64,000 bases of DNA from Escherichia phage ph0011: the sequence record OP557969.1. One strand, 5' to 3'. Below, one piece after another: positions 5,052-19,311 of this stretch (position 1 is its first letter; the number at the start of each line of letters is the position of its first letter). The notes under the pieces are model-generated. The model made no database searches, was not told where the DNA came from, and saw only the letters and a program-made list of their open reading frames with translations. The translations under genes and the position numbers were made by a program.

Positions 5052-5075
5052 TACACATTAAGAGAGATTAAAACG

Positions 5076-5438: not shown

Positions 5439-5530
5439 GTTTAATAAAGTACTTGCATACTAAGTTAAAACAAGTATAATACTTTCTATCAGGTGGGGAA
5501 TAGTTCCCCACTATATAAGAGGATTAAAAA

Positions 5531-5770
5531 ATGGCTAAATCAAAAATGTTCTTAGGTCACAAAAACAAAACTCATTGGAATGTAAGCCTTTGGATTAATA
5601 ACGATGAATCATTATACCGGTTGGCCCTGGACTTTATTGCCGCCAATACTAATCGCAATGATGCGGCCCGTCATATGATGTTATTTTTAGAACAGACTGG
5701 ACAAGATAAAACACCGGACGGATTCAAATATAGCACTACTGCGATCCGTGCGGCGATGGTTGGAATGTAA
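5531..5770 (+). CDS. hypothetical protein, paralog of 7569..7808
   Basis: Shared GHKNKTHWNVSLWINN and TPDGFKYSTTAIRAAMVGM; own cassette. Confidence 0.7.
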   Translation: MAKSKMFLGHKNKTHWNVSLWINNDESLYRLALDFIAANTNRNDAARHMMLFLEQTGQDKTPDGFKYSTTAIRAAMVGM

Positions 5771-5860
5771 TAGAATAGAATTTATTTAAAGTACTATCAT
5801 TTTTTGCGATAGTACTTTATAATAGTGTTTTATTCATACACCAACGATAAGGGCAATAGC

Positions 5861-6127
5861 ATGAATATTAAGTATTTTGCGACGCGTGAACAAGCTCGGA
5901 AGGCGGCGAAAGTGGAAGGTGCAACGTTTAAAGATATGGGCATACAATCGGAACGTGGTAAACGTTGGGCCATTGTAAAGCGTAGTACAGCCAGATCATT
6001 ACAGTACTGGTTAGCGGCTTTAAAAAGTCCTGCTAGTGTATCGCGTCGAGTGGTAGAAATAAAGCTCGACCGTAAGGGGAATCGTGTTACCGTGTACCGT
6101 ACTAAAAAGATAGCAGTACTTGAATAA
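5861..6127 (+). CDS. hypothetical protein, paralog of 18547..18942
   Basis: Shared FYATRE..FKDMG..DRKGNRVTVY; start at MNIKY after RBS. Confidence 0.6.
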   Translation: MNIKYFATREQARKAAKVEGATFKDMGIQSERGKRWAIVKRSTARSLQYWLAALKSPASVSRRVVEIKLDRKGNRVTVYRTKKIAVLE

Positions 6128-6130
6128 AAA

Positions 6131-6195
6131 GTACTTGCAAACTATGCTTAAAAGCGTATAATACTTTATATCAGGGCGGGGGAATAGTTCCCGCC
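6131..6195 (+). promoter_or_regulatory. early promoter plus 5' leader hairpin cassette
   Basis: AGTACTTGCAA, TATAAT, GCGGGGGAA-tag-TTCCCGCC hairpin. Confidence 0.6.
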
Positions 6196-6214
6196 TATAA
6201 CCGGGAGTAATAAA

Positions 6215-6445
6215 ATGACTAATATGTATATGACTGAAGTTAAAACCGTAAAAGATACTACCACGAATAAAACTACTTACTTACAGCGGATCTGTGGTGT
6301 CTGGCAACGTATCAGCAAATCAAAGTACTTTAAATTAACATCATATGCCAATCGTTCGGATTCATTCAGTACTGAAATAAAAGGTAATAAAGTACACCAA
6401 TACGGCACTTATTATTATTATAGCCTGGACGCGATTGCAGTATAA
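6215..6445 (+). CDS. hypothetical protein (76 aa)
   Basis: ATG directly after hairpin and AGGAGT RBS. Confidence 0.6.
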   Translation: MTNMYMTEVKTVKDTTTNKTTYLQRICGVWQRISKSKYFKLTSYANRSDSFSTEIKGNKVHQYGTYYYYSLDAIAV

Positions 6446-6730
6446 GTAGTTTACAAATCTTTACAATTGCCGGTATTGACTTAAAATGTCAGTACTGGCA
6501 TAATGTATTCATTGGCAGATAAGCCGTGGCCCATAGGGTGCGGAAGTGTATCTATAGAAAAATTAGTTTAGTACAGTTACAATTGTGCACCCTGTGGGTT
6601 AGCTGTTGTCATGGGGTATATTATGCCAGTACTTGATAATGCTGTCAATACTTTTTTACTATTCAGTACTGAAAACTATTTGATAAAAAGTACTTGCAAA
6701 CTATGTTTAAAGGCGTATAATGTTTTACAT

Positions 6731-6803
6731 CAGGACGGGGAACGAAATAAGTAACTTCCCGTTAAGTAGCCCAGGAGTAAGGCATACGAAAAACTCCCCT
6801 GAT
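6731..6803 (+). other. structured about 75-nt leader element (copy 1), candidate small RNA or regulatory leader
   Basis: Starts at promoter +1 (CAGGACGGGGAACG...ACTCCCCTGAT), followed by a second promoter; near-identical copy at 17354-17424. Confidence 0.45.
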
Positions 6804-6871
6804 AAAATAGTTTGACAATTGTTTTTAAAAGCGTATAATACTTACATCAACTACTGAATGAGGGTTACAAA

Positions 6872-7483
6872 ATGAAAACTATCACTACTACTACTTATGT
6901 TATGGATTTTTCTGAATTGAACGCAGAACAAAAAACGTCAGCTATCGAACTGGTTCGGGAACGTGAAAAAAACTTAAACGACGATTATTTTTCTGAAAGT
7001 GAAATTGAATACTATAAAGAAACAGTACTACCGGAATATGGCATTAATGACGCAGAAATACAATTCAGTGGTTTTTGGTCGCAAGGTGACGGTGCATCAA
7101 TTAGTACTGACCACGTTGACGCAGTGAAGTTTTTACGTAAGGTAAGAGCATTAACTAAGTATCGCTCAATCCGTCACCTGCTGAATGAAGATGATTTGGC
7201 GATGAGTGTAAAGCGTTCTCACTCCCGCTACTCACATGAGAACACTGTAAGCGGGTACATTGAATCGGCTTACACTGATTTAACCGCAAAACAAGAAACG
7301 TTAGTTAATGAGCTTGAGGAACTGCTCACTGATACTATTCGTGAATTGTCACGCAAGTTATACCGTGATTTAGAGAATGCATATGAGGATCAATTCACTA
7401 CTGAAAACATCGTATCACTGATTGAGGGTAACGAATATCAATTCAATGTTATTGATGGCGTAGTAGAATCAATTGCATATTAA
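6872..7483 (+). CDS. hypothetical protein (203 aa)
   Basis: ORF with RBS GAGGG; tandem promoters upstream; no confident family call. Confidence 0.65.
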   Translation: MKTITTTTYVMDFSELNAEQKTSAIELVREREKNLNDDYFSESEIEYYKETVLPEYGINDAEIQFSGFWSQGDGASISTDHVDAVKFLRKVRALTKYRSIRHLLNEDDLAMSVKRSHSRYSHENTVSGYIESAYTDLTAKQETLVNELEELLTDTIRELSRKLYRDLENAYEDQFTTENIVSLIEGNEYQFNVIDGVVESIAY

Positions 7484-7485
7484 AA

Positions 7486-7550
7486 AGTACTTGCAAACTA
7501 AGTTTAAAAGCGTATAATACTTTATATCGAGGCGGGGAATGGTTCCCCGC
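7486..7550 (+). promoter_or_regulatory. early promoter plus 5' leader hairpin cassette
   Basis: AGTACTTGCAA, TATAAT, GCGGGGAA-tgg-TTCCCCGC hairpin. Confidence 0.6.
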
Positions 7551-7568
7551 TCAAACGAGGATTTAAAA

Positions 7569-7808
7569 ATGGCTAGTACTAAAACTTACAACGGTCACAA
7601 AAACAAAACTCATTGGAATGTTTCCTTATGGATTAATAACGGTGAGTCATTGTATCGGCTTGCTCAAAGTTGCATCGCACAATGTAAAACTAAAGATATT
7701 GCGGCCCAATGTATGTACCGCAGATTAAAAGCCAACGGTACTACTACAACGCCGGACGGATTCAAGTATAGCACTACGGCGATCCGTGCTGCAATGGTTG
7801 GAATGTAA
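7569..7808 (+). CDS. hypothetical protein, paralog of 5531..5770
   Basis: Start at MASTKTYNGHKNKTHW after hairpin and RBS. Confidence 0.7.
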   Translation: MASTKTYNGHKNKTHWNVSLWINNGESLYRLAQSCIAQCKTKDIAAQCMYRRLKANGTTTTPDGFKYSTTAIRAAMVGM

Positions 7809-7864
7809 CATTCAGTACTGAATCAATGGCGGGTGTGGTTCCCGCCTTTACTGAGGATTATCTA

Positions 7865-8146
7865 ATGAGTAAAGTAATTAACTATACAGTACTAAGCAAG
7901 TCATTATCTATTAGCCAGTGCACCGATGGTTTTTGGCTGTACGATGAAACGCGTGGTATGAATTTAGCTATGCAGGAGAAAACTCCTGATGCGGCATATC
8001 TTAAAGCACTGGAATACTACCAGAAGCGTTTAACGGAAGTAGAAAACAATTATCAGAATCTCAAAGAGAAAGTAGATAATTTCGTTGGTCAATTCGTTGA
8101 CGATGACGAAGGGCACTACTGCGACCGTTGCGGATCTTACAGTTAA
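7865..8146 (+). CDS. hypothetical protein (93 aa), C-terminal CxxC
   Basis: Start at MSKVINY after GGCGGG..CCCGCC hairpin and RBS GAGGAT. Confidence 0.55.
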   Translation: MSKVINYTVLSKSLSISQCTDGFWLYDETRGMNLAMQEKTPDAAYLKALEYYQKRLTEVENNYQNLKEKVDNFVGQFVDDDEGHYCDRCGSYS

Positions 8147-8163
8147 GTACTAAGGATTATATA

Positions 8164-8367
8164 ATGAGTGATTTAATTGAACGTATCAAAGAGCTTGAAG
8201 AAAAAGAATTACAGCTAATCGGCTTACAGAATAAAATCTATCATGATTTGGGGAGTTTTATCAATGCTTGGGATAGTGGCGATCCTGATGCGTTACCTGC
8301 TAACCGCCAGGCAATGATCAATGATGTGCGTGGTGTCTTTGAGTATGTTTTAAAGCAATTAAATTAA
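8164..8367 (+). CDS. hypothetical protein (67 aa)
   Basis: Start at MSDLIER after RBS TAAGGA. Confidence 0.55.
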   Translation: MSDLIERIKELEEKELQLIGLQNKIYHDLGSFINAWDSGDPDALPANRQAMINDVRGVFEYVLKQLN

Positions 8368-8370
8368 AAA

Positions 8371-8436
8371 AGTACTTGCAATTAGTTTTTAGTACTGTAT
8401 AATGTTTTACATAGAGGGGAGAAAATGGTTCTCCCT
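8371..8436 (+). promoter_or_regulatory. early promoter plus 5' leader hairpin cassette
   Basis: AGTACTTGCAA, AGTACTGTATAAT, GGGGAGAAA-atg-GTTCTCCC hairpin. Confidence 0.6.
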
Positions 8437-8454
8437 AGTAAAGAGGAAAATAAA

Positions 8455-8676
8455 ATGGCTAATATTACTACTCTTTCCCAACTTGAAGCACTGGTTAAAT
8501 CTATGCGGGAACATGCCGACAAAATCGGCGTAAAAGATCCAGCCGTTTGCTTTTGTGACGAATTGAATGATGATACATTGGTAATAGCAGAAGTCCAGGA
8601 CGTTTCTAACTATTCATCGCGTTACACTGGCGGCGTAGCAAATAAAGGTGACTTCTGTTTATACCTTACCAAATAA
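8455..8676 (+). CDS. hypothetical protein (73 aa)
   Basis: Start at MANITTL after hairpin and RBS AAGAGGAAA. Confidence 0.65.
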   Translation: MANITTLSQLEALVKSMREHADKIGVKDPAVCFCDELNDDTLVIAEVQDVSNYSSRYTGGVANKGDFCLYLTK

Positions 8677-8840
8677 CAACGCGGGGAGATAATAACTCCC
8701 CGTTACTTTTTCAGTACTGAATCATTTAATAGACGGATCTATGCACCCGGTGGGTTAGTGACTGTTTCGTCTTGATGTAGTAATTATGCCAGTACTGGAT
8801 GCGGTTGTCAAGAACTATTTTTCAAATACTTTTTACTAAA

Positions 8841-8906
8841 GTACTTGCTAATAGTTTTTAAACGCGTATAATGTTTTACATAGCAAGGGGAAACGGTTTC
8901 CCCTGG
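8841..8906 (+). promoter_or_regulatory. early promoter plus 5' leader hairpin cassette
   Basis: AGTACTTGCTA, TATAAT, GGGGAAAC-g-GTTTCCCC hairpin. Confidence 0.6.
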
Positions 8907-8924
8907 TAACTAAGGAATAAGAAA

Positions 8925-9161
8925 ATGATCGAACAAATCAAATCAACGTCTGCGAATGTAACGGGAACGGTATCACACTTTACTAGTGATGAATCGCGGG
9001 GCGTACCCTATTGTGCTGTACATGTAAACACTGAGGGTAACTACTGGTTTACGGTTTACGGATCATATTCATTTGGACGGCCAGGGCATCAAAAAATTCT
9101 GGATAAAGTACAGCCAACGGGTAAAAATATCACTGCTGAAATGTTTTATAAAAAATCATAA
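8925..9161 (+). CDS. hypothetical protein (78 aa)
   Basis: ATG after hairpin and RBS TAAGGA. Confidence 0.65.
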   Translation: MIEQIKSTSANVTGTVSHFTSDESRGVPYCAVHVNTEGNYWFTVYGSYSFGRPGHQKILDKVQPTGKNITAEMFYKKS

Positions 9162-9162
9162 A

Positions 9163-9228
9163 GTACTTGATAATAGTTTTTAGTATTGTATAATATTTTA
9201 CATCGCAAGGGGGAGCGGTTCCCCCTGG
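9163..9228 (+). promoter_or_regulatory. early promoter plus 5' leader hairpin cassette
   Basis: AGTACTTGATA, TGTATAAT, GGGGGAGC-GGTTCCCCC hairpin. Confidence 0.55.
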
Positions 9229-9245
9229 TAACTAAGGATAATAAA

Positions 9246-9545
9246 ATGAAAATTGCAATCATCGCCCTGGCTTTATCTGTTTCCTCTTTCGCTGTTAATG
9301 CGTCATTAGATGTAAGTAGTGAAAAATTCATTCAGTGCACTGTTGCAATGACCGATGAAAGAACTGGCGAGATTGTATTAAAGGATTTAGAGATCCAGCC
9401 GGAAGCATTTAAAAACGGCCCGTTCCATGAAGAAGACGAAAACGGTAGTACAACAATTTATTATGATGCTAGTACTAAACGCGGTTCGGTCACGGTTATG
9501 GATACTGAGAAAGTAACTCATACAGGCGTTATTAATTGCCGTTGA
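9246..9545 (+). CDS. small secreted or periplasmic protein (99 aa) with Sec-type signal peptide
   Basis: N-terminus MKIAIIALALSVSSFAVNA with AxA-like cleavage site; two Cys in mature part. Confidence 0.6.
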   Translation: MKIAIIALALSVSSFAVNASLDVSSEKFIQCTVAMTDERTGEIVLKDLEIQPEAFKNGPFHEEDENGSTTIYYDASTKRGSVTVMDTEKVTHTGVINCR

Positions 9546-9566
9546 TTGATACTACGGGGTAACATC

Positions 9567-9797
9567 ATGACTAAGCGAATAGTTTTACTTAACGCTGGAA
9601 GTACTACACAACTCCTTAACGCCGTGCATTATGATATTGAAACGAGCGTCAATCTTATCAGTACTGTAGTATTGTTGGACACTGGAAAGGTCGCAAATGA
9701 TAAAGCGATTGCAGGTATACTAACGGATCTTAAACCAGGTTGCAGTACTCCAATAACTTTAAATGATAAAGTGTTTAATATTTTACTAACTGATTAA
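9567..9797 (+). CDS. hypothetical protein (76 aa)
   Basis: ATG 22 nt after upstream stop; weak RBS; intrinsic terminator follows. Confidence 0.45.
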   Translation: MTKRIVLLNAGSTTQLLNAVHYDIETSVNLISTVVLLDTGKVANDKAIAGILTDLKPGCSTPITLNDKVFNILLTD

Positions 9798-9803
9798 GTA
9801 CAT

Positions 9804-9830
9804 AGCCCACCAGGTGGGCTTTTTTGTTTT
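9804..9830 (+). terminator. rho-independent terminator
   Basis: AGCCCACC/GGTGGGCT stem then TTTTTTGTTTTT. Confidence 0.75.
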
Positions 9831-9872
9831 TGTAGTATTGTAGTACTGAGATACTTTGAAAATAGTTTTAAA

Positions 9873-9915
9873 AAAGTAGTTGACATTACCGCAAAAAGGC
9901 GTAGAATGTATTACA
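9873..9915 (+). promoter_or_regulatory. sigma70-type promoter followed by long structured leader
   Basis: TTGACA, 17-bp spacer, TAGAAT; about 100-nt leader related to the 6731 element. Confidence 0.5.
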
Positions 9916-10030
9916 TCAAGACGGGGAGCACTAAGTAGACCGCCAGTAAGTCGAACGAAAAACTGGACACGTCGAGAAAACTTTGATACACTAATAAACG
10001 TAAACTAAACTTTAATTGAGGATTTATAAA

Positions 10031-10513
10031 ATGGCGAATGTAAAATCATTTCTGAAAGCACTGATTTCCAACGATACTGCTATTGCGGCTGAACTGCTGG
10101 CGGATCTGGATAACGATACCATGAAAGCAGTACGCAACAATTTTAACATTGCGTACAGTGAAGCTAAAGAACTGCAAGCCAAAAAGGTAGCAGAACTGGA
10201 AGAACAGAAAAAAGCCCGTGAAGAAGAACTACAAGCAACGATTGAAAGTATTCAGGCGGCAGTTGCTGGGTTGGATCTGGATGTAGTTGTAGAAATGGCA
10301 CATAAAGCCCTGGCAGTTAAGTACGGGGAAGATAAGCCAGTAGCTAAACCTAAAAAATGGATTCAGGAACGCGTAACGGTTGTTCTTGATAATGGCGAAG
10401 AACATTTAATTCCCGTGCGTGGTAACTGCATTGCGGTAGTTCTGGATGCTATCAAAGAAAGCGGATTGACTCGCGAGGAATGGATCGAAGCTCACCGCAA
10501 AATTGAAGCATAA
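10031..10513 (+). CDS. hypothetical protein (160 aa), coiled-coil-rich N-terminal half
   Basis: Start at MANVKSF after RBS GAGGAT; charged heptad-like segment EEQKKAREEELQ. Confidence 0.65.
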   Translation: MANVKSFLKALISNDTAIAAELLADLDNDTMKAVRNNFNIAYSEAKELQAKKVAELEEQKKAREEELQATIESIQAAVAGLDLDVVVEMAHKALAVKYGEDKPVAKPKKWIQERVTVVLDNGEEHLIPVRGNCIAVVLDAIKESGLTREEWIEAHRKIEA

Positions 10514-10534
10514 CAATTAAAGTACTGAATCACT

Positions 10535-10568
10535 AGCCCACTTCTTATAGTGGGCTTTTTTGTGTTTA
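10535..10568 (+). terminator. rho-independent terminator
   Basis: AGCCCAC/GTGGGCT stem then TTTTTTGTGTTT. Confidence 0.7.
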
Positions 10569-10788
10569 TCGTTTACCAGTCCACTAGCACCGCCTAGAGT
10601 CGATTCTAACGCATTAAACTGATTATCTGATGAATAGCCCTAGCTGGTGGCGTTAATGCCGTTAGAACGCGATTGAGGACGTTTAAAGTATTTTGCAAAA
10701 AGTAATAAAAAGTACTTGCACGATTAAGAGATTAGAGTATAATTAATTACATCAAGACAAGACACCTTAACTAACTGAGGATATAAAG

Positions 10789-10941
10789 ATGAATACTTAT
10801 GAACTGGATTGTTTCACTTTACAAGTAATGTCAGTATGCAGTAAAAAAGATTGGTCATCAAAGGAATTTAAAGCAGTTATTGCGTGTGCAAAACACGGCA
10901 AGACTATCAATGAAACGGCATCAATCATTGATAAACTTTAA
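10789..10941 (+). CDS. micro-protein (about 50 aa), Cys-containing
   Basis: Promoter (TTGCAC..TATAAT), RBS GAGGAT, ATG; below ORF-track cutoff; hand-read. Confidence 0.4.
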   Translation: MNTYELDCFTLQVMSVCSKKDWSSKEFKAVIACAKHGKTINETASIIDKL

Positions 10942-11012
10942 AAAATAGTTTGACAATAGTTTTAAGTACTGCGATAATACATACATCAACTACTGAATAG
11001 GAATAAAAAACA

Positions 11013-11240
11013 ATGGCTATCGTAATCACTCGCGTAACTGGTACTACTGGCACTGCTTCAACTGTTGCTGTAATTACTAATAAGAAAGGTGCAGAATTAC
11101 ATTTTGCAATGGATAAATGGGCCGTTAATGAGTTTGGTCAGTGGGCAAGTGTAGAATACATTGAAACCTATCAAGTGCCATCGATTAGCTTAACTGATTT
11201 AGGTGTAGAACGTATCCTTTGCCTGGATGAATTAAATTAA
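11013..11240 (+). CDS. hypothetical protein (75 aa), Thr/Gly-rich N-terminus
   Basis: Promoter TTGACA..CGATAAT upstream; RBS AATAGG. Confidence 0.55.
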   Translation: MAIVITRVTGTTGTASTVAVITNKKGAELHFAMDKWAVNEFGQWASVEYIETYQVPSISLTDLGVERILCLDELN

Positions 11241-11326
11241 AAAAGTACTTGCAAAGTAAATCAAATAAAGTATAATACATTACATCAAGGGGAGAAAATG
11301 GTTCTCCCCACTAAGAGGAAACTAAT

Positions 11327-11470
11327 ATGAAAACTTGTCAATGTGGTAAAAAATCTATTACGGGTTTGAAACGGGGCGTTGCACTTTGCCAGTATCATTA
11401 TAATGCTCAAGTATGGGGTAAAGAATGGGCCGACCAGGTGGAAGCAGCAAAGAAAGCAAAAAGTAAGTAA
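11327..11470 (+). CDS. micro-protein (about 47 aa), possible zinc-ribbon (CxCG ... CQYH)
   Basis: Complete cassette: promoter, GGGGAGAA/TTCTCCCC hairpin, RBS AAGAGGAAA, ATG; hand-read. Confidence 0.45.
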   Translation: MKTCQCGKKSITGLKRGVALCQYHYNAQVWGKEWADQVEAAKKAKSK

Positions 11471-11482
11471 AAATATTATCAC

Positions 11483-11520
11483 AGTACTATTGACATAGAT
11501 TGATAGTACTGGCATAATAG
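11483..11520 (+). promoter_or_regulatory. class-2 early promoter (AGTACTATTGACA ... AGTACTGGCATAAT)
   Basis: TTGACA, 17-bp spacer, CATAAT, AGTACT flanking both elements; same module at about 14366 and 22582. Confidence 0.55.
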
Positions 11521-11551
11521 ATTTTATCAAGACAACTAAGAGGAAATTAAA

Positions 11552-11896
11552 ATGGCTAACATCAATACTATAGCAGCACAAAATATCAACCTGTCTTCTG
11601 TTGAAGTTGTACACATTGCCGCCCGGCGTTGGTTCCAGGCGTCTTATGGTAATACTTATTTCTCTTTAACGGTAGATGTTGAAATCAATGGCGAATTTAT
11701 TGAAGTAGTAAACGTGCCGTTCCAATATGGCTACGGGGATCATTTTGACACTGTAGCAATGGAAGAATTTAGCAAGGTTATTAATATGGAAGGTAAAGAG
11801 TTTTTACGCGGTTCTTATCTTTCCCGTTTTTGCCGTGATAATAATATTACTGTTTATAGTTCTGTTAGTGATGTTAAACGCAAAAAAGATCTTTAA
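11552..11896 (+). CDS. hypothetical protein, paralog of 18128..18451
   Basis: Shared GNTY, YGYG and C-terminal DVKRKKD; RBS AAGAGGAAA. Confidence 0.7.
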   Translation: MANINTIAAQNINLSSVEVVHIAARRWFQASYGNTYFSLTVDVEINGEFIEVVNVPFQYGYGDHFDTVAMEEFSKVINMEGKEFLRGSYLSRFCRDNNITVYSSVSDVKRKKDL

Positions 11897-11976
11897 TTAG
11901 CTTTACTTTATGCAGATACTTTGATATAGTGTCTGCATAGGGGAAAGAAATTAAATCAACTTAAGAGGATAGTAAA

Positions 11977-12246
11977 ATGAAAAATATCAGTACTTTAATC
12001 GATGCAGGTACACATGTTCGTCGGTCTATGGTTGCAACCAGTTCTACAAAACAAGTAGCGAGCGGTTATCTTGTATTTGTGCACGATGGTAAACTCCTGG
12101 AACGTTCAATCAATTTTGATGTTAAAAACAATTGCCGTTTTATTATCTTTCGCCGTGAACAATATAAGATCGACATTCCAGCGAAGCCCATTAGCGGGGC
12201 GTACAACGTGCAATCATTGTTTGAGCGTCAACCATACACCTATTAA
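11977..12246 (+). CDS. hypothetical protein (89 aa)
   Basis: RBS AAGAGGA upstream. Confidence 0.6.
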   Translation: MKNISTLIDAGTHVRRSMVATSSTKQVASGYLVFVHDGKLLERSINFDVKNNCRFIIFRREQYKIDIPAKPISGAYNVQSLFERQPYTY

Positions 12247-12297
12247 TCAAAACAACGTTAGCGGTCGATTTAGGCCGCTTATACTGGGGATTATATA

Positions 12298-12570
12298 ATG
12301 AATACTAATCAAGTACTGAACGAGATTGAAAGCATCATTAAACCGATGAAGCGTACTGATGCAATGTTAACACCGGAAGAATGCCGCTTATATGAGCGTT
12401 ACAGCGTCGAACAAGTACAGGAAATGGCTATGGCTATCCCTGCCGTTCAACAGCCTGAGAACGCAGTACAGGACGTTACAGGGGATTATAACATCAATCC
12501 AGTACTAGGGAAGATTACACCAATTACCGAAGAACAAAAAGACTACTTAAGCCAGTACTTAAAAGGTTAA
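12298..12570 (+). CDS. hypothetical protein (90 aa)
   Basis: RBS GGGGA upstream; acidic. Confidence 0.6.
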   Translation: MNTNQVLNEIESIIKPMKRTDAMLTPEECRLYERYSVEQVQEMAMAIPAVQQPENAVQDVTGDYNINPVLGKITPITEEQKDYLSQYLKG

Positions 12571-12575
12571 TTAAT

Positions 12576-12785
12576 ATGCTTACTGTACAGGATAAGATCG
12601 ACATCTTAAAGGTTAATATGTATGTGATTGATGCCGTACCTGGTAAAGTATTTGCATACGATGACACCACTGTAAGCAATTTCTACTATAGCCAGGAAGT
12701 GGGGGATCTTTCTGTACAGTCGGTTATTGAAAACGTAGTTAATGCAGCGTATGAGCATTTACTTTCAAATAGTACTTGCAATTAG
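12576..12785 (+). CDS. hypothetical protein (69 aa)
   Basis: ATG 6 nt after upstream stop. Confidence 0.5.
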   Translation: MLTVQDKIDILKVNMYVIDAVPGKVFAYDDTTVSNFYYSQEVGDLSVQSVIENVVNAAYEHLLSNSTCN

Positions 12786-12833
12786 TTTTTAAACGCGTAT
12801 AATGTTTTACATGAAGGGGAGAAATAGTACTCC
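12771..12833 (+). promoter_or_regulatory. early promoter plus 5' leader hairpin cassette
   Basis: AGTACTTGCAA, TATAAT, GGGGAGAAA-tag-TACTCCC hairpin. Confidence 0.55.
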
Positions 12834-12853
12834 CACTAATTAAGGAATAGTAA

Positions 12854-13000
12854 ATGAAAGCATCAAAAAAGAGTACTAACAAGAAAGCACGTTCAACTTT
12901 AGATGGGGTATTCCCTTTGCGTTTTGTGGATGAAGTAGTTTCCTACCCGCTGGGCCTTACTCCTGAGATGGTAGAAAGTTTGCGTAAATCTAAAAAATAG
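12854..13000 (+). CDS. micro-protein (about 48 aa), basic
   Basis: Cassette (promoter, hairpin, RBS TAAGGA) then ATG; hand-read. Confidence 0.4.
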   Translation: MKASKKSTNKKARSTLDGVFPLRFVDEVVSYPLGLTPEMVESLRKSKK

Positions 13001-13081
13001 TACTTGCAATTAGTTTTTAGTACTGTATAATGTTTTACATGAAGGGGAGAAATGATTCTCCCCAAGAACAGGAGAAACAAA

Positions 13082-13234
13082 ATGAAACAATACAACGCTC
13101 GGTTTGATGTTACTATCGGCAACGGCAAAGGTCAATTCTCTTTCAGTACTCGTAAGAGTTATACAGAAAACTTCTTGCGTAATTGTGCACTGACCGCCGC
13201 ACAAATTAAACATTATTTTCAGGCTAAAAAATGA
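13082..13234 (+). CDS. micro-protein (50 aa)
   Basis: Start at MKQYN after hairpin and RBS AGGAGA. Confidence 0.55.
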   Translation: MKQYNARFDVTIGNGKGQFSFSTRKSYTENFLRNCALTAAQIKHYFQAKK

Positions 13235-13320
13235 AATCATTAGCTTATTATAGTTCGGCCCTGGTCGGTGCATTGATCGCGGCATTGTTAGTAGCTTATC
13301 TATTCTTTATGGTGATTTAA
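13231..13320 (+). CDS. tiny hydrophobic peptide (about 29 aa), predicted single transmembrane helix
   Basis: ATGA overlap with upstream stop; MKSLAYYSSALVGALIAALLVAYLFFMVI; hand-read. Confidence 0.35.
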   Translation: MKSLAYYSSALVGALIAALLVAYLFFMVI

Positions 13321-13458
13321 ATGAATCCTAACGGTATAATTTACAGTACTCCTAAAACGAAAGCAGATAAAGCCAAAGCACGTAAAGCGAAAGTAAAGGA
13401 GTACATCAAGCAAGGCATGACACGAAAGGCGGCAGTACTGAAAGCTAAAAATAAATGA
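13321..13458 (+). CDS. lysine-rich micro-protein (about 45 aa)
   Basis: ATG directly after previous stop; highly basic; hand-read. Confidence 0.35.
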   Translation: MNPNGIIYSTPKTKADKAKARKAKVKEYIKQGMTRKAAVLKAKNK

Positions 13459-13459
13459 A

Positions 13460-13565
13460 AAAAGTGGTTGACTTCGGTCAGCCATTTTGCTATTATATAT
13501 TCATTGAGAGATAGCTCACTAGCCCACGGGGTGCGGGAGTGTATCTATTATATAAGCATTGAGTA
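13460..13565 (+). repeat. GGGTGCG-core intergenic element with its own TTGACT..TATTATATA promoter
   Basis: Related copies at about 17190, 20460 and 23200. Confidence 0.5.
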
Positions 13566-13606
13566 CTGAAAACTATTTTAAAAGTATTTGTAGAAAGTAC
13601 TTGCAA

Positions 13607-13660
13607 ACTATCTCAATAGGCGTATAATGTTTTACATCAAGGGGGAAACGGTTTCCCCTA
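13607..13660 (+). promoter_or_regulatory. early promoter plus 5' leader hairpin cassette
   Basis: AGTACTTGCAA, TATAAT, GGGGGAAAC-g-GTTTCCCC hairpin. Confidence 0.6.
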
Positions 13661-13678
13661 GTAATAAGGAATAAAATC

Positions 13679-14020
13679 ATGACTATTGCAATTGTACAAT
13701 CTAACTTTGAAAACGAAATCATCGCCCAAGCACTGCGTTTAAATGATGGTCGGGCCGAAATTAATTACGGTTTCAATTCAGGCGGTTGTGAAAAATATCA
13801 GTACTTTATAACTGCTGATGGCGGTGTCCTGGGTATTAATACAGTTATTGTAAACATTCAGAAAATTAATTTCAATGATCCAGACGATAGCCAGTTTTAC
13901 ATTATAGGCGTAGACGTGAACTATGAGGATGACTCACTAACTGATGATTACACTGGCGAGAAGTTAGAAAGTGCATACGGTGAAGATGATTATCAGTCAG
14001 TACCGGAAGATTTTGAATAA
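13679..14020 (+). CDS. hypothetical acidic protein (113 aa)
   Basis: RBS TAAGGA after hairpin; Asp/Glu-rich C-terminus. Confidence 0.65.
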   Translation: MTIAIVQSNFENEIIAQALRLNDGRAEINYGFNSGGCEKYQYFITADGGVLGINTVIVNIQKINFNDPDDSQFYIIGVDVNYEDDSLTDDYTGEKLESAYGEDDYQSVPEDFE

Positions 14021-14143
14021 TATTAAAAAATAGTTTGACAATAGATTATAGTACTGTATAATATTTTACATGAAGGGCAACGGGAAGTTTTTAAAACTTC
14101 CCTATAGGGAGAATAGTTCTCCCACTAACAGAGAGAAAACAAA

Positions 14144-14356
14144 ATGGCTAATATCTGCACTGTACTGAAAAATGCAAAACAAGTTTTATTTTCTGATCAC
14201 GATCATTTAAACAAGGATATTACTGGCGTTCGGAATATCAAAGATGTAAAAAGTGTTATGGGCATCTATTGCAATATGAAACGTGTTGGAACGTTCGGTA
14301 ATAAATTTCTATACCAAGCGGGGGATTACAATTTTACACTGACTATCATTAACTAA
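14144..14356 (+). CDS. hypothetical protein (70 aa)
   Basis: Promoter, double hairpin, RBS AGAGAGA. Confidence 0.6.
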   Translation: MANICTVLKNAKQVLFSDHDHLNKDITGVRNIKDVKSVMGIYCNMKRVGTFGNKFLYQAGDYNFTLTIIN

Positions 14357-14438
14357 AAATATTATCACAGTACTATTGACATAGATTGATAGTACTGGCA
14401 TAATAGATTTTATCAATTACACTACTAAGGAATTAAAA

Positions 14439-14618
14439 ATGGCTATCATCGCAAAAACTGAAATCATCGGCCTGGATTCTATCATCATGACGTTTGAAGA
14501 TCAAAAAGGTATGTATGTAGTTTCCTATGGTGATTATGTTCGGGAGTATGAAACGGTAGACGAAGCCTTTGAAAGTTACATTCGCCAGGTGAATAAAGCA
14601 TACGACGATTACCGCTAA
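14439..14618 (+). CDS. micro-protein (about 59 aa)
   Basis: Class-2 promoter, RBS TAAGGA, ATG; hand-read. Confidence 0.45.
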   Translation: MAIIAKTEIIGLDSIIMTFEDQKGMYVVSYGDYVREYETVDEAFESYIRQVNKAYDDYR

Positions 14619-14731
14619 AATATATTACCAGTACTATTAAAGATATTGACAACGTTTGATAGTACTGGCATAATAAGTTTTATAAACAGTAGTCAAATAG
14701 TAGTTAACTTAACAAAAGAGAGAGAAACAAA

Positions 14732-14875
14732 ATGATCGCACTGGATTCATTCATCGATGCAGTTCTGGCAAAAACTGGCGAGGATCTGACCGCAGAACAA
14801 TACGCGATGATCGAGCAATGCCAGCAAGACGGTAAATCGGTGAAAGATACTGTTAAGATTATCCGCAAGATGTAA
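14732..14875 (+). CDS. micro-protein (about 47 aa)
   Basis: Class-2 promoter, RBS AGAGAGAGA, ATG; hairpin follows; hand-read. Confidence 0.4.
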   Translation: MIALDSFIDAVLAKTGEDLTAEQYAMIEQCQQDGKSVKDTVKIIRKM

Positions 14876-14981
14876 GATTATAAGCCCATTAGTTAACGCT
14901 GGTGGGCTTTAATCATTTACCCTATACAATGCCAGTACTAAACCGTTTATCTCGTTAGAATGCATTACAGGACGTTTGACA

Positions 14982-15179
14982 ATGATTAGCATGAAATCAG
15001 TACAAAAACAAATAGAAACATTATCAAAAATTAAACGTAAACAGTACTCATTAGAATATAATATCAATGGTAACTATCATCTAATGAAAGAGAATAATTT
15101 TATCGTCATTGATGAATCATTGCAAATTATTAGTATAGTACTGAAAGCATTAATTAATGATAGAAAAAGGTTAAAATAA
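14982..15179 (+). CDS. hypothetical protein (about 65 aa)
   Basis: Track ORF begins at a TTG; first ATG chosen; no clear RBS. Confidence 0.35.
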   Translation: MISMKSVQKQIETLSKIKRKQYSLEYNINGNYHLMKENNFIVIDESLQIISIVLKALINDRKRLK

Positions 15180-15436
15180 TGGCAGTAGGATTCGCGAAAG
15201 ATGGAGCCGAGCAAGATGAGATTAACGCAGTTATTCAAGCCGCCGTTAACCACGCTAGAAAGCAAATTAACGCACAAATAGAATCACTGATACATTGCCT
15301 CGACTGCGGCGATAAAATCCCTGAGAATCGCCGACAGGCTGTTAAGGGTTGTAAGTACTGCATAACTTGCCAGGAGGATCATGATAGTACTTTTAAACGT
15401 CCCCCGCGTAATTGTTGGCATAGATCTATGAGATAA
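15179..15436 (+). CDS. TraR/DksA-family C4 zinc-finger protein
   Basis: C-x2-C-GDKIPENRR ... C-x2-C spacing typical of TraR-like proteins; start overlaps upstream stop. Confidence 0.7.
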   Translation: MAVGFAKDGAEQDEINAVIQAAVNHARKQINAQIESLIHCLDCGDKIPENRRQAVKGCKYCITCQEDHDSTFKRPPRNCWHRSMR

Positions 15437-15500
15437 AAAGTAATTGACAGTACTGAAAGATAGTGTATAATGTTTTATATCTTAACTGAGGATAGAAATC

Positions 15501-15857
15501 ATGGGAATACAACATATCACGCGGACCACTGACAATGGCGAGATCACTGGTTATCAAGTACAGGGCAAAGTAGCACAATTGCAGTACTGGTTTGTTAAAC
15601 GTGGAATCATTGCACCGGATCTTGATTATGACCGTGTAGCGTTTATTGATTCTCTTTATGTTGATCCTGATAGTCGGGGCAATGGTGAAGGTAACGAATT
15701 AATGAATGCCTTTATTGATGCCGCCGATGATTCAGATTGTATCATCTTAGAATGCGATACGGGAGAAGATAACGCCTTTAATCTTAAAGAATGGTACGAA
15801 GGTTTCGGATTCGAGGTATTGATAGATAGTGAATATCCTATCATGATTTTATCATAG
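15501..15857 (+). CDS. probable small GNAT-family acetyltransferase
   Basis: FIDSLYVDPDSRGNGEGNELMNAF resembles GNAT motif A; 118 aa. Confidence 0.4.
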   Translation: MGIQHITRTTDNGEITGYQVQGKVAQLQYWFVKRGIIAPDLDYDRVAFIDSLYVDPDSRGNGEGNELMNAFIDAADDSDCIILECDTGEDNAFNLKEWYEGFGFEVLIDSEYPIMILS

Positions 15858-15936
15858 TACTTGCATTTAGTTTTCAGTACTGTTATAGTACTTGCATCAA
15901 GGGGAAACATCTTCCCCTACTAAGAGGAAATAAAAA

Positions 15937-16125
15937 ATGGAAAACTTATCAAGTATTTTAGTACAAGATGATTTCGGTAATCCTGGAAGTGCTATCATTG
16001 TTCGGGGCAATAAAGCAACGTTTGTTATTGCTGGTGGACCCGTACAGCGTAGCATTAAAAATAATGCTGTTACCATTAATAATGTACGCTATCGCTTAGA
16101 TAAAGAATTAATTCATAAACTGTAA
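15937..16125 (+). CDS. hypothetical protein (62 aa)
   Basis: Promoter, GGGGAAAC..TTCCCC hairpin, RBS AAGAGGAAA. Confidence 0.6.
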   Translation: MENLSSILVQDDFGNPGSAIIVRGNKATFVIAGGPVQRSIKNNAVTINNVRYRLDKELIHKL

Positions 16126-16152
16126 TATTAATTTAATAGAGGATAACAATAA

Positions 16153-16476
16153 ATGTACATTCATACTACTGTCACAAAGGAAGTCCGTTGCCAGTTCGAA
16201 AGTATTCCGGGCGTATGTTTCATCACTGGTACGTTTTCCCCTGGTGATCGTGATAATCCAGTACTGTTACAGTTACGCCATCCATTATGGGATAAAGCAT
16301 TTGATCTGCCGTTGAATGAATTCGCAACCACTGCTGATAAGTACATTAAAAATATTCGCGAGAATGATTGCCTATTCATTAATGCTTTTAGTGATGCCGC
16401 GTTAAGTGAGATCCATGCTGTATTGGTTGCAATCATGGAATCAATGGAGAAAACTATATTCAAACAAGGTGAATAA
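16153..16476 (+). CDS. hypothetical protein (107 aa)
   Basis: RBS AGAGGA upstream. Confidence 0.6.
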   Translation: MYIHTTVTKEVRCQFESIPGVCFITGTFSPGDRDNPVLLQLRHPLWDKAFDLPLNEFATTADKYIKNIRENDCLFINAFSDAALSEIHAVLVAIMESMEKTIFKQGE

Positions 16477-16481
16477 AAACT

Positions 16482-16542
16482 ATTGACAATGCAATCCAGT
16501 ACTGTATAATAGTTTACATGAAGGGGAGAAATGATTCTCCCC
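16482..16542 (+). promoter_or_regulatory. early promoter plus 5' leader hairpin cassette
   Basis: TTGACA, AGTACTGTATAAT, GGGGAGAA-atga-TTCTCCCC perfect palindrome. Confidence 0.65.
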
Positions 16543-16559
16543 ACTAAGAGGAAAGAAAA

Positions 16560-16772
16560 ATGCAAGGTCAACTAATCGTTCGTAAATGGTCTGATACTAA
16601 CGAAAAACCGTGGGATGTACAATACATCGCCCCAAATGGTGAATCCAGATATCAACCAGGTGTAACGCATAGTACTGAGCAATTCGCCGCCGCTCATCGC
16701 GAACGTCTGTTACAATCAATGCAGCACGGTTCCGGTGAAAAATTCATTCAGGATCATTGGCTGAAAGATTAA
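16560..16772 (+). CDS. hypothetical protein (70 aa)
   Basis: ATG after hairpin and RBS AAGAGGAAA. Confidence 0.65.
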   Translation: MQGQLIVRKWSDTNEKPWDVQYIAPNGESRYQPGVTHSTEQFAAAHRERLLQSMQHGSGEKFIQDHWLKD

Positions 16773-16858
16773 AAAGTACTTGCACAGTACTGAATAAAGT
16801 GTATAATGTTTTATATCGGAAGGGGAATAGTTCCCCTCCTAACAAAGAGGAAAGTATA

Positions 16859-17032
16859 ATGGTCCAGGTAGAATTAACAGTACTGAAAGATCTGTTTTAT
16901 CGGATTGGTACTACTGGCGAATATCCGAAGGGTGATAATGCAAAACTTTACGTATCACTCGACTTATGGCAACGCGAACAATTAGCAACGGCCTGGCGTA
17001 AAGGCAAAGCAGATAGCGAGGTGAAAGCATGA
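16859..17032 (+). CDS. micro-protein (57 aa)
   Basis: Start at MVQVEL after hairpin and RBS AAGAGGAAA. Confidence 0.55.
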   Translation: MVQVELTVLKDLFYRIGTTGEYPKGDNAKLYVSLDLWQREQLATAWRKGKADSEVKA

Positions 17033-17178
17033 AAGAATTCTTATTTGAAGTAGTGTTTCAAGGTGTCGGTAATAACCAACTGATTCGATCAAGTGGTTAT
17101 AATGTTAACCAGGCATGGAATAACATTAAACAAATGTACCCTAACGCTATCACATATCGCAACCCGAAAGAAGTTTAA
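17029..17178 (+). CDS. micro-protein (about 49 aa)
   Basis: ATGA overlap with upstream stop; hand-read. Confidence 0.35.
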   Translation: MKEFLFEVVFQGVGNNQLIRSSGYNVNQAWNNIKQMYPNAITYRNPKEV

Positions 17179-17189
17179 AAATATTTGAA

Positions 17190-17290
17190 AAAGGGATTGA
17201 CTCCGGTCAGTCCCTTTGCTATTATATACGCATAGAAACAAATCAGCCCACAGGGTGCATAAATGTATCTATTGTTTGCTGGTGGCTAGT
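17190..17290 (+). repeat. GGGTGCG-core intergenic element with own promoter
   Basis: GGGATTGACTCCGGTCAGTCCCTTTGCTATTATATA then AGCCCACAGGGTGCAT; near-identical 5' part at 20460 and 23200. Confidence 0.5.
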
Positions 17291-17353
17291 ACTGAAAACT
17301 ATTTTTAAAAAAGTACTTGCATTGTACTTAGAATCAAGTATAATGTTTTACAT

Positions 17354-17424
17354 CAGGACGGGGAACGAAATAAGTAACCCCGTTAAGTAGTCCAGGAGTA
17401 AGACATACGAAAAACTCCCCTGAT
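17354..17424 (+). other. structured about 75-nt leader element (copy 2)
   Basis: Near-identical to 6731-6803; between tandem promoters upstream of 17494. Confidence 0.45.
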
Positions 17425-17493
17425 AAAATAGTTTGACAATAGAAAGTAAACGAGTATAATACTTACATCAACCACTGATAAGGAAACATTAAA

Positions 17494-17769
17494 ATGCGGA
17501 CTTTACTTACAGCTAACGAAATCGAGCAAGTACTGACTACTAATCTGGAACAATGGAAACGTGAAGCAGATATCCAGGCGGTTCAATGCCTTAACGATAA
17601 GTTAACGCCAGATGACTTAAGCACGATTGTTGATCCACAATTTTATGAAGATATTCACGACACGTCTTTAAGCGTCGAGGATGTACTTGATAAGCACTAC
17701 ATTGATACTGATTTACATGTTTACGGTCGTAAAAACTTTATCACTATTCACGACATTTACAATACTTAA
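17494..17769 (+). CDS. hypothetical acidic protein (91 aa)
   Basis: RBS TAAGGAAA upstream. Confidence 0.65.
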   Translation: MRTLLTANEIEQVLTTNLEQWKREADIQAVQCLNDKLTPDDLSTIVDPQFYEDIHDTSLSVEDVLDKHYIDTDLHVYGRKNFITIHDIYNT

Positions 17770-17772
17770 GTA

Positions 17773-17836
17773 TTGACAAAGTATCTTAGTACTGTATAAT
17801 AGTTTACATCAAGTGAGGGGAAACGGTTCCCCTCCT
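17773..17836 (+). promoter_or_regulatory. early promoter plus 5' leader hairpin cassette (duplicate A)
   Basis: TTGACA, AGTACTGTATAAT, GAGGGGAA..TTCCCCTC hairpin; about 85-bp near-identical copy at 18044-18127. Confidence 0.65.
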
Positions 17837-17857
17837 AACAAAGAGAGAGAAATTAAA

Positions 17858-18040
17858 ATGGCTAAGTGCACTATCTGTAAGAAAGAAATCGTATTAGTTC
17901 CAAGTGCCCGTGAACGTGCCGCTCGGTTCGGTGGCAAAGCGTCAGACTATACAAAAATGTTTACTGCCCATGCAGCTTGTCAAGTAGCAAAACGTTCACA
18001 AGAAAGCGTAGAATTAATGCGTAAACTTTCCAAAAAATAA
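17858..18040 (+). CDS. micro-protein (60 aa), Cys/Lys-rich
   Basis: Start at MAKCTICKKE after hairpin and RBS AGAGAGAGA; start set from track frame. Confidence 0.6.
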   Translation: MAKCTICKKEIVLVPSARERAARFGGKASDYTKMFTAHAACQVAKRSQESVELMRKLSKK

Positions 18041-18043
18041 GTA

Positions 18044-18104
18044 TTGACAAAGTATCTTAGTACTGTATAATAGTTTACATCAAGCGAGGGGAATGGTTCC
18101 CCTC
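18044..18104 (+). promoter_or_regulatory. early promoter plus 5' leader hairpin cassette (duplicate B)
   Basis: Near-identical to 17773-17836. Confidence 0.65.
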
Positions 18105-18127
18105 CTAACAAAGAGAGAGAAATAAAA

Positions 18128-18451
18128 ATGGCTATGATCCTTACCCAGAAAGTAGAACTGAAAATTGTAACCTCCTTTGACATTAAAGTTAATCGGTGGA
18201 CTGATAGCCACGGCAATACTTACCACTCCTGCTACGTGTCCGCATTGATTGGTGATCGCTGGGAAGACCTGGGACACGAAACCTTTACATACGGTTACGG
18301 CACACAAGGCGAGTACACGGGTTTAGAAATCATTAAGGAAACTGTAATAGGTTTCAACCCGAAAGAGAAAGTACTACACAGAATTGAGAAAGAGATCAAC
18401 AAAGAAATTACAGTTCGCTACTACGATGTAAAACGTAAGAAAGACATGTAA
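18128..18451 (+). CDS. hypothetical protein, paralog of 11552..11896
   Basis: Shared GNTY, YGYG, DVKRKKD. Confidence 0.7.
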   Translation: MAMILTQKVELKIVTSFDIKVNRWTDSHGNTYHSCYVSALIGDRWEDLGHETFTYGYGTQGEYTGLEIIKETVIGFNPKEKVLHRIEKEINKEITVRYYDVKRKKDM

Positions 18452-18546
18452 TAGAATCCATTTAAAGTACTATTTGACATTGCCCAGATAGTACTTTATA
18501 ATAGACTCTAACTTGTAGTACTAACTTAACTAATAGGATGTATACC

Positions 18547-18942
18547 ATGATTACTAAATTCTACGCTACCCGTGAAGCTGCCCGTATTGTTGCACGCGAG
18601 GAAGGAGCAGCATTTAAAGACATGGGCAAAGATGCACCGAAAGGTCAACGCTGGGCCGTACAGTTCAAAGAAATCTCTGATATTGTGAATTCACCTGAGC
18701 CAGTACTGACAGCAGCAGAACTAAAACGAGCGGATATGCTGGCGGCAATACTTGACGCACAAGATGAGTTTATCGCTGATTCTGATATCAAAGTACAGGT
18801 AAACCACACCGCATGGACTCACGCGGATCACCTGGCAAACCTTAAGCGTCCAAGTGAACTGATTCGCAACCAGAAAGAGATCCGACATGATCGTAAGGGT
18901 AATCGTGTAACAGTATACAGTAAACGCCGCCAGGTTATCTAA
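18547..18942 (+). CDS. hypothetical protein, paralog of 5861..6127
   Basis: Start at MITKFYATRE (RBS AGGA 8 nt upstream). Confidence 0.6.
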   Translation: MITKFYATREAARIVAREEGAAFKDMGKDAPKGQRWAVQFKEISDIVNSPEPVLTAAELKRADMLAAILDAQDEFIADSDIKVQVNHTAWTHADHLANLKRPSELIRNQKEIRHDRKGNRVTVYSKRRQVI

Positions 18943-18964
18943 TAACTTGCAGTACTAACAACAC

Positions 18965-18990
18965 GGCGGGATCAGTTCCCGCCTTTTTTA
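18965..18990 (+). terminator. rho-independent terminator
   Basis: GGCGGGA/TCCCGCC stem then TTTTTTA; same stem type as leader hairpins but with a U-run. Confidence 0.7.
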
Positions 18991-19003
18991 TAGGACAAAC
19001 AAA

Positions 19004-19258: not shown

Positions 19259-19311
19259 CAGTACTCAATTGTTTTAGTATTATGTACACATACCAACACG
19301 GGAGAAACAAA

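Follow-up and report, generated by a model that had tools for sequence, protein, structure and literature searches.

What lies between the tandem promoters in the early region of Escherichia phage ph0011, and what might it do there? A sequence-only reading of the 64,000 nucleotides analysed here (record OP557969.1, one strand, 5' to 3'; the window in what follows) had picked out two near-identical leader elements, each set between a first early promoter and a second one, and had suggested that they could be a short regulatory RNA, a riboregulatory leader or a processing site. The window represents the early region of an Asteriusvirus jumbo coliphage, about equivalent to its ~21-kb terminal repeat. 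By combining alignment, covariance models and searches of phage and bacterial genomes, we find that these two elements and a third, diverged copy are, as judged by sequence and covariation, members of a widespread family of pseudoknotted early-leader RNAs that is shared with phage T7. The family has no Rfam entry and is apparently undescribed, an earlier description in subscription journals being possible. Its members constitute an RNA-level, structurally constrained and portable module that is independent of the gene downstream.

Three copies of one leader element

Copy 1 of the element (6729–6803; this and all further window coordinates are on the + strand unless otherwise stated) follows a promoter, here called Pa, at 6694–6721 (TTGCAA-16-TATAAT), which has an A-rich upstream region from about 6665 and belongs to a promoter family of some 40 copies. 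Beyond the element come a second promoter, Pb, at 6812–6839 (TTGACA-16-TATAAT, 12 of 12 consensus positions), with a predicted start near 6846, 117 nt past that of Pa, then a Shine–Dalgarno (SD) sequence, GAGGG (6860–6864), and the ATG at 6872. Copy 2 (17352–17424) repeats this arrangement, with Pa at 17317–17344 (TTGCAT-16-TATAAT), Pb at 17433–17460 (TTGACA-16-TATAAT) and a ribosome-binding site (RBS) ahead of the ATG at 17494, and the order of parts given in the sequence-only reading holds at both places. If the predicted +1 is placed as in T7 A1 (at A6729 and A17352) and the last base of the closing helix is taken as the other end, copy 1 has the length of 75 nt proposed earlier and copy 2 has 73 nt; the supposed T/C variation at two neighbouring positions is in fact a 2-nt indel, the TT of copy 1 being missing from copy 2. 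A 25-mer (CAGGACGGGGAACGAAATAAGTAAC) and a 21-mer (ACGAAAAACTCCCCTGATAAA) shared by the two copies each occur exactly twice in the 64 kb, against an expectation of 0. Pairwise alignment finds two substitutions beside that indel within the element, whereas the spacers inside Pa and Pb largely differ between the copies, so the element is conserved as much as the promoter hexamers themselves.

Copy 3 (9915–9973) is a short form without hairpin H2 and stands between a promoter at 9880–9907 (TTGACA-16-TAGAAT), directly past an intrinsic terminator at 9804–9828, and a weak promoter-like site at 9983–10011 (TTGATA-17-TAAACT). It had been described as a divergent leader of similar length; divergent it is, and the kinship goes beyond length, a 30-nt core and covariance models identifying it as a true homologue. 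The core pattern has three matches in the window, namely all three copies, where 0 are expected, and a filter-free covariance-model scan of the window returns exactly the same three.

Single-sequence and alignment folding of the window class gives a three-way junction (AUCAGG/CCUGAU, ACGGGG..CCCCGU and GGAGU..ACUCC). In copy 1 the closing helix H1 (AUCAGG/CCUGAU) pairs 6729–6734 with 6798–6803 and encloses hairpin H2 (6735–6762), the invariant UAAGUA (6763–6768) and helix H3 (GGAGU/ACUCC, 6774–6778/6793–6797), while GCC at 6769–6771 pairs with GGC at 6781–6783 to form a pseudoknot, followed by the A-rich loop AUACGAAAAA (6784–6793). The corresponding parts of copy 2 are H1 at 17352–17357/17419–17424, H2 at 17358–17383, UAAGUA at 17384–17389, H3 at 17395–17399/17414–17418 and a pseudoknot of GUC (17390–17392) with GAC (17402–17404) that covaries with that of copy 1. 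In copy 3 the closing helix is formed by GACG (9920–9923) and CGUC (9970–9973), UAAGUA lies at 9932–9937, the pseudoknot pairs GAC (9938–9940) with GUC (9950–9952), and H3 pairs CCAGU (9943–9947) with ACUGG (9962–9966). The second of the nested repeats proposed earlier (CAGG..GGGGA/TCCCCTG) is better read as the closing helix AUCAGG/CCUGAU together with a third helix, GGAGU/ACUCC, which that description lacked.

Written for the whole family, the core is UAAGUA-GNC-stem-UAA-GNC-AYACGAAAAA-stem, and about 19 positions are invariant across unrelated phages. With its loop fixed, H3 occurs as GGAG/CUCC, CCAG/CUGG, GGUG/CACC, CCUG/CAGG and CUUG/CAAG; by member, it is GGAGU/ACUCC in copies 1 and 2, CCAGU/ACUGG in copy 3, CCUG/CAGG in T7, GGUGU/ACACC in EJP2 and CUUG/CAAG in LTH01. 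Pairing within H3 stands at 92.7%, against 23–46% when the partner columns are slid, and three of its pairs change on both sides. For H2 and H3 together, in a model-fitted alignment of 32 distinct sequences, pairing is 96.5% with both-side change in seven of nine pairs, and the same alignment holds 18 G-U cells on the transcribed strand that would mismatch on the other, which favours the transcribed strand and hence an element made of RNA. The CMSTMSU record is unverified and riddled with indels, and its copies were therefore kept out of the alignments.

The pseudoknot joins the strand just 5' of H3 to the H3 loop, the GNC directly after UAAGUA pairing over 3 bp with the GNC in that loop (GCC/GGC in copy 1, GUC/GAC in copy 2, GAC/GUC in copy 3); its third loop is A-rich and 10 nt long. 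An invariant G and C flank the middle pair on both sides, and the middle pair itself is A-U in 24 distinct members, U-A in 9, C-G in 5 and mismatched in 1. It is paired, then, in 38 of the 39, against 10 of 26 chance hits of the pattern, and since both positions are N in the scan pattern this covariation is free of selection bias. The C-G pair is found in copy 1, outra, muut and the unrelated L034/L038 group, and the U-A pair in copy 2, A73, 121Q, EJP2 and the T7-like L030; their presence in unrelated lineages indicates that the change at the middle pair arose several times. The closing helix, for its part, is found in every class except the T7-like one, and has an unrelated sequence in each (AUCAGG/CCUGAU, GACG/CGUC, GACGG/CCGUC, CGGC/GCCG, GCGGC/GUCGC and CAACGAA/UUCGUUG). 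The earlier idea of a structured leader RNA finds strong support in these helices, in the pseudoknot, in the sense-strand G-U pairs and in a conservation across phages that includes T7.

Relatives in T7 and other phages

A blastn search with a 90-nt element found 44 records, mostly with the element at two places, or at four if a record includes the two terminal repeats. Matches of 88–92% identity lie in other subfamilies, in the Justusliebigvirus phages outra, muut and EmilieFrey and in the Vequintavirinae A73, W70, A7_1 and A5-4. The whole Pa–element–Pb cassette is kept in these relatives, but ahead of different genes. As the downstream genes differ between copies, the element would act independently of whichever gene it precedes.

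The closest relative of the window elements is the A1–A2 interval of T7 (nt ~535–597), with counterparts in T3, K1F, phiA1122 and other Studiervirinae. Its core, UAAGUAGACAGCCUGAUAAGUCGCACGAAAAACAGG, lies at 551–590 of T7, between the annotated E. coli promoters A1 (498) and A2 (626), and the segment is conserved, nearly always unannotated, in 486 T7-like (Studiervirinae) records whose hosts are nearly all Enterobacterales (two name Stenotrophomonas and Enterococcus). The core of copy 3 has matches in Yersinia phage phiA1122 (553–587) and in several other jumbo phages. A degenerate pattern, TAAGTAG-N-C ... TAAG-N-C-NN-A-N-GAAA, matches the three window copies, T7, phiA1122 and about 35 T7-like contigs from IMG/VR; further carriers are the jumbo phages Munch, L058 and Hallingskeid and the Vequintavirinae member LTH01. 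A covariance model built from 19 T7-like sequences only, and run over the window without filters, places the three copies first (rough E-values of 2.7e-5, 1.1e-4 and 3.8e-4; 24–29 bits), with copy 3 at 2.7e-5, and its next match at E 1.2.

T7-like phages share the core (UAAGUAG-NC, stem, UAAG-NC-NNAYGAAAAA, stem) and the pseudoknot pairing, a hairpin again comes immediately before the motif, and the motif holds the same place on the transcribed strand, shortly past a strong host-polymerase promoter with another such promoter next. The first 10 transcribed bases of T7 A1, AUCGAGAGGG, are those of several ordinary leaders of the window, and T7 and jumbo early cassettes thus appear to be related beyond the element itself. 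The T7 version differs in several ways. A separate 5' hairpin comes first and the motif begins about 35 nt past the start site; it lacks a closing helix and runs directly up to the -35 of A2. A T7 genome also has a single copy, against three per terminal repeat in the window phage.

Outside these phages the searches came back empty. Two scans of 185,579 bacterial and archaeal genomes gave chance matches only, plus one mis-binned T3-like contig, and blastn of 5,426 E. coli genomes found no copy; the idea of a host copy that might reveal a regulon was rejected, the bacterial genome scans having yielded no true one. The first-step-transfer region of T5 has no motif match. Rfam 15 finds 0 families at gathering score in the 64-kb window, and around the three copies and T7 400–950 noise only at E up to 10. 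The T7 records leave the motif unannotated, the papers that could be searched hold no description of it, and papers on related jumbo phages mention promoters and not the element.

The element might instead be kept as DNA, either as an UP-like or upstream activating region for the downstream promoter or as the conserved core of a mobile promoter cassette whose copies stay alike because co-infecting phages often recombine. An identity of 88–92% across three phage subfamilies does speak of recent exchange, and in T7 the GAAAAAC tract coincides with the position that the UP consensus would give to a proximal UP subsite of A2. In T4-type phages, shuffling is mediated by cassettes of a promoter plus a stem-loop, the promoter-early stem-loop (PeSL) cassettes, composites of a promoter and a terminator-type stem-loop that act as recombination sites; they are repeated early modules between small variable early genes and are exchanged among phages (PMC2839356, PMC4122927). 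The ~40 ordinary promoter/GC-hairpin leaders of the window look like these cassettes, though the fit is loose. In contrast, the element has three helices, a pseudoknot, invariant loops and a place between two promoters; its fold is more complex, and it has no terminator-like stem with a U tract. The stems covary while the loops stay fixed, the 18 sense-strand G-U cells would be A-C mismatches on the other strand, and covariation in the pseudoknot would be meaningless in duplex DNA. The distance from H3 to the next -35, moreover, runs from 2 to 42 nt without helical phase, and the L034/L038 group has no second promoter. We regard a DNA-level role as very improbable.

Promoter context and candidate functions

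Every carrier has the motif on its transcribed strand, about 55 nt at most from the start of a strong early promoter (a predicted start, except for the annotated T7 A1). A second promoter follows, 2–42 nt after H3, in every lineage seen except the L034/L038 group, in which a boxA (GCTCTTTAACAA) comes after the motif in its place; in T7-like leaders a boxA lies further downstream in the same leader. Helical phasing of the motif to the next promoter was considered and rejected, as these distances show no period.

We hypothesize that the element is a self-contained, gene-independent 5' RNA domain that binds a conserved host component, a reading that we prefer, if tentatively, and judge to be a little short of evenly probable. 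It would be the 5'-terminal domain of an RNA made from Pa by the host σ70 RNA polymerase, folded compactly by a closing helix that joins the first six transcribed nucleotides to the last six of the domain. Inside that helix an optional hairpin and an H-type pseudoknot would leave UAA and the A-rich AYACGAAAAA as invariant single strands. Provided that both promoters fire, as we infer, the domain would be made in quantity at the very start of infection while Pb would supply the downstream gene with a leader-free mRNA. It would then act apart from that gene, through a conserved enterobacterial component such as a protein, the transcribing polymerase or another macromolecule, either while tethered to polymerase or after release. 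What suggests a host partner is the combination of invariant single strands, restriction to phages of Enterobacterales, a Pb that bypasses the element, and the fate of the T7 leader, which RNase III cuts from the gene 0.3 mRNA at R0.3.

The placement of the element recalls the put RNAs of phage HK022, which are structured, about 70 nt long and encoded close behind early phage promoters, with two or more copies in a genome, and which act in cis on RNA polymerase with no phage protein needed. The window element resembles them in placement, size and copy number, and in being structured. A put-like cis modifier would be a nascent pseudoknot that stays tethered to its polymerase and makes it resist pausing or termination in the early region, in T7 with an effect during transcription-driven genome entry. 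Such a role would suit an element that always lies within ~55 nt of a strong early start, and one whose copies 3 and 2 start new units past terminator-like hairpins (9804 and 17190), and the downstream boxA (GCTCTTTAACAA) in T7-like phages and L034/L038 points the same way. Removal of the T7 leader by RNase III would likewise leave only a co-transcriptional or trans role possible there. The put RNAs, however, have two stem-loops and no reported pseudoknot, and a filter-free model scan of the whole HK022 genome found no match in sequence or structure, its best site being an unrelated one (12.5 bits, E 0.15). The same genes are also transcribed by polymerases that start at T7 A2 or A3, or at Pb, and never carry the element; each window unit is one short gene with further promoters after it, and the window offers no boxA signal, its early region having 8 two-mismatch matches against 7.9 expected, none near the elements. 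On these grounds a put-like role is unlikely, if worth keeping in view.

A more local role would be that of a cis-acting 5' stabiliser, blocking 5'-end-dependent decay, or of a translational control that modulates RBS access on the Pa mRNA. The closing helix pairs predicted +1 to +6, 5'-terminal stem-loops are known to stabilise E. coli mRNAs, and a simple 5' GC hairpin follows most other early promoters of the window; in copy 1, moreover, GUAGCCC can pair with the SD region in a longer fold. That pairing is not kept in copy 2 or elsewhere, and a stabiliser would have no need of invariant loops, yet the family has ~19 positions that never vary among unrelated phages. Transcripts that start at Pb do not contain the element, and T7 removes its leader at R0.3. 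Both forms of this role are, in our judgement, improbable. The leader pseudoknot of T4 gene 32 is a comparable case, likewise of the H type and at the 5' terminus of a phage mRNA leader, with an A/U-rich unstructured stretch after it; the gene 32 product starts to bind at this pseudoknot, and gene 32 is the one gene that is regulated. The window elements, compared with it by description only, have differing downstream genes and an intervening second promoter.

Could the pseudoknot instead form the pocket of a new riboswitch-like aptamer, or the active site of a small self-cleaving ribozyme? The combination of a 3-bp and a 4–5-bp helix with an A-rich loop and invariant junction bases is that of small pseudoknot aptamers, and the core is fixed while the closing helix varies freely. 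Small H-type aptamers such as preQ1-I are similar in size and have two short stems, an A-rich third loop and invariant unpaired bases. Against this, there is no Rfam riboswitch or ribozyme match even at E 10, no recognisable expression platform (terminator or SD sequestration) and no link to metabolic genes, and we know of no report of self-cleavage in T7 A1 transcripts despite their long use in vitro. We consider this reading quite improbable.

Several narrower candidates were also tried and rejected. Mimicry of 16S rRNA was suggested by the resemblance of 16S 870–886 (GUUAAGUCGACCGCCUG) to UAAGUAGACCGCCAG, but alignment to the rrn operon scores within the shuffle range and the site reaches only 11.7 bits (E 0.26) in the covariance model. 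Pairing to rRNA or to rrn-encoded tRNAs fails for want of a complementary 7–9-mer common to the motif classes. A leader peptide could be read in some copies as a short frame (AUA/ACG-AAA-AAC-UCC...), with an AUG at that place in EJP2, but frame, start codon and SD are not kept in copy 3 or T7, whereas the nucleotides are. GGA motifs that might serve as CsrA sites in copies 1 and 2 are missing at the same places in copy 3 and T7, and a nut site of the lambda or rrn type is at odds with the lack of a boxA beside the window elements.

Returning to the proposal of a domain that binds a host component, a number of points weigh against it or limit its reach. All promoters other than the annotated T7 A1 and A2 are consensus predictions. 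The folding energies of single sequences are modestly better than those of shuffles (z of -1.7 and -3.3), the model-fitted alignment was fitted to the model's own structure, the E-values of the models are rough, and the pseudoknot is supported by one covarying pair between two invariant ones. As T7-like members are without the closing helix, a self-contained domain is less clear there. The rRNA similarity and complementarity tests for a partner were negative. The text and literal-sequence searches of the literature turned up only papers printing the T7 fragment as a construct, subscription journals being outside their reach. Finally, no intrinsic terminator (a GC-rich hairpin with a U tract) is called at or just after any window copy, H3 being followed by CCUGAUAAAAUAG and not by a U tract, and a discrete short RNA would therefore need a putative processing step. 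The three options of the sequence-only reading (small RNA, riboregulator and processing site) are not separable by sequence tools. A gene-specific riboregulator is the least likely of them, because the cassette precedes unrelated genes, the Pb mRNA would be leader-free and the T7 leader is cut away.

It is possible, if on balance doubtful, that the motif represents a new functional RNA class, on which many unrelated enterobacterial phages draw during the first seconds of infection. In that case it might be a decoy or recruiter of a conserved host factor (polymerase, nuclease, chaperone or defence component), or else an aptamer or ribozyme. If so, it would have gone unnoticed inside the T7 A1–A2 interval, a much-used piece of DNA in transcription research. 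Early transcripts of the host polymerase are the first phage molecules made in the cell, and the conservation of an RNA domain there suggests that podoviruses, jumbo myoviruses, rV5-like and phi92-like phages have in common an RNA-based step of host takeover or defence evasion. Because T7 carries the motif, its function is directly testable in the best-developed phage system, where point and compensatory mutants of the 3-bp pseudoknot are easy to build. The motif can also be used for annotating early regions, and the T7 A1-A2-A3 fragment, a widely used promoter cassette, may bring an active RNA element into constructs.

The surrounding early region

A 1-kb probe around copy 1 matched 38 phage records at 94–97% identity, all of them ~350-kb Asteriusvirus jumbo coliphages (PBECO4, 121Q, phAPEC6 and G17 among them). 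In one phage, fEgEco12, a distance of 3,390 bp separates copy 1 from the physical left end, and the direct terminal repeat measures 20,993 bp (PMC13070987); from these two figures the promoter array corresponds approximately to the terminal repeat. A terminal repeat carrying the promoter array would be the DNA that enters the cell first. The array consists of about 40 σ70-type promoters on the + strand between 3.7 and 24 kb, forming one repeat family in which an A-rich upstream region precedes TTGCAA or TTGACA, a 16-nt spacer and TATAAT, and most of them are followed by a short 5' GC hairpin (GGGGAGAA..UUCUCCCC) and then the RBS. More than 20, between 3750 and 23850 (20617–20650, for example), have this PeSL-like combination of 5' GC hairpin and RBS. 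An atypical early leader at 14063–14143 has tandem hairpins, GGGAAGUUUUUAAAACUUCCC and then GGGAGAAUAGUUCUCCC, before its RBS. The 64-kb window contains 0 tRNAs.

The genes downstream of the copies are small and acidic. Copy 1 precedes a gene at 6872–7483 for a 203-aa acidic protein (pI 4.6, phrog_5162), copy 3 an RBS and a gene at 10031–10513 (ATG at 10031, 160 aa, phrog_27871), and copy 2 the gene at 17494–17769 for a 91-aa acidic protein (phrog_14947). A homologue of this last gene also follows the cassette of muut (L002), in which 1508–1583, set against window 17352–17427, has a 5' G run and a 3' C run that are each one base longer; cassette and gene seem to have been transferred jointly between a phi92-like phage and the jumbo phage.

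A second repeated non-coding family occurs at 4560–4700, 6476–6565, 13461–13560, 17177–17275, 20446–20545 and 23193–23290, just upstream of ordinary early promoters and of Pa of copies 1 and 2. Each unit has a 12-bp hairpin (AAAGGGATTGACTCCGGTCAGTCCCTTT) holding a -35 box, then TGcTATTAT, and a conserved stretch of ~50 nt that ends in GCCCAYAGGGTGCGGAAGTGTATC; the family may be a terminator–promoter composite making a short RNA. In the intergenic region of copy 1, convergent promoter-like sites (+ 6476–6504 and - 6648–6620) flank an inverted repeat (CCCATAGGGTGC at 6530–6541, GCACCCTGTGGG at 6587–6598), and the pair at 6476–6650 could give a sense/antisense pair of RNAs.

The window has 11 Chi sites (GCTGGTGG) where 0.49 are expected, and nine of them are on the + strand at 3978–23328, in the early region of the terminal repeat. 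One, at 17278–17285, lies 32 nt upstream of the -35 hexamer of copy 2 Pa, and in phage Munch the second promoter has a Chi within its spacer. The stretch 4144–4295, about 0.8–1 kb inside the predicted physical left end, is an array of 8-bp units in tandem with degenerate sequence (ATGGCTAG / ACGGCTAA and similar). Farther on, repeated coding segments at 25693–29126 and 38760–45806 (for example ...GGGACAAACTATCAA; GATGAGGC.GAACTATTCCAAG...TTAGTATT.GA.A) point to tandem paralogous gene families downstream of the early region.

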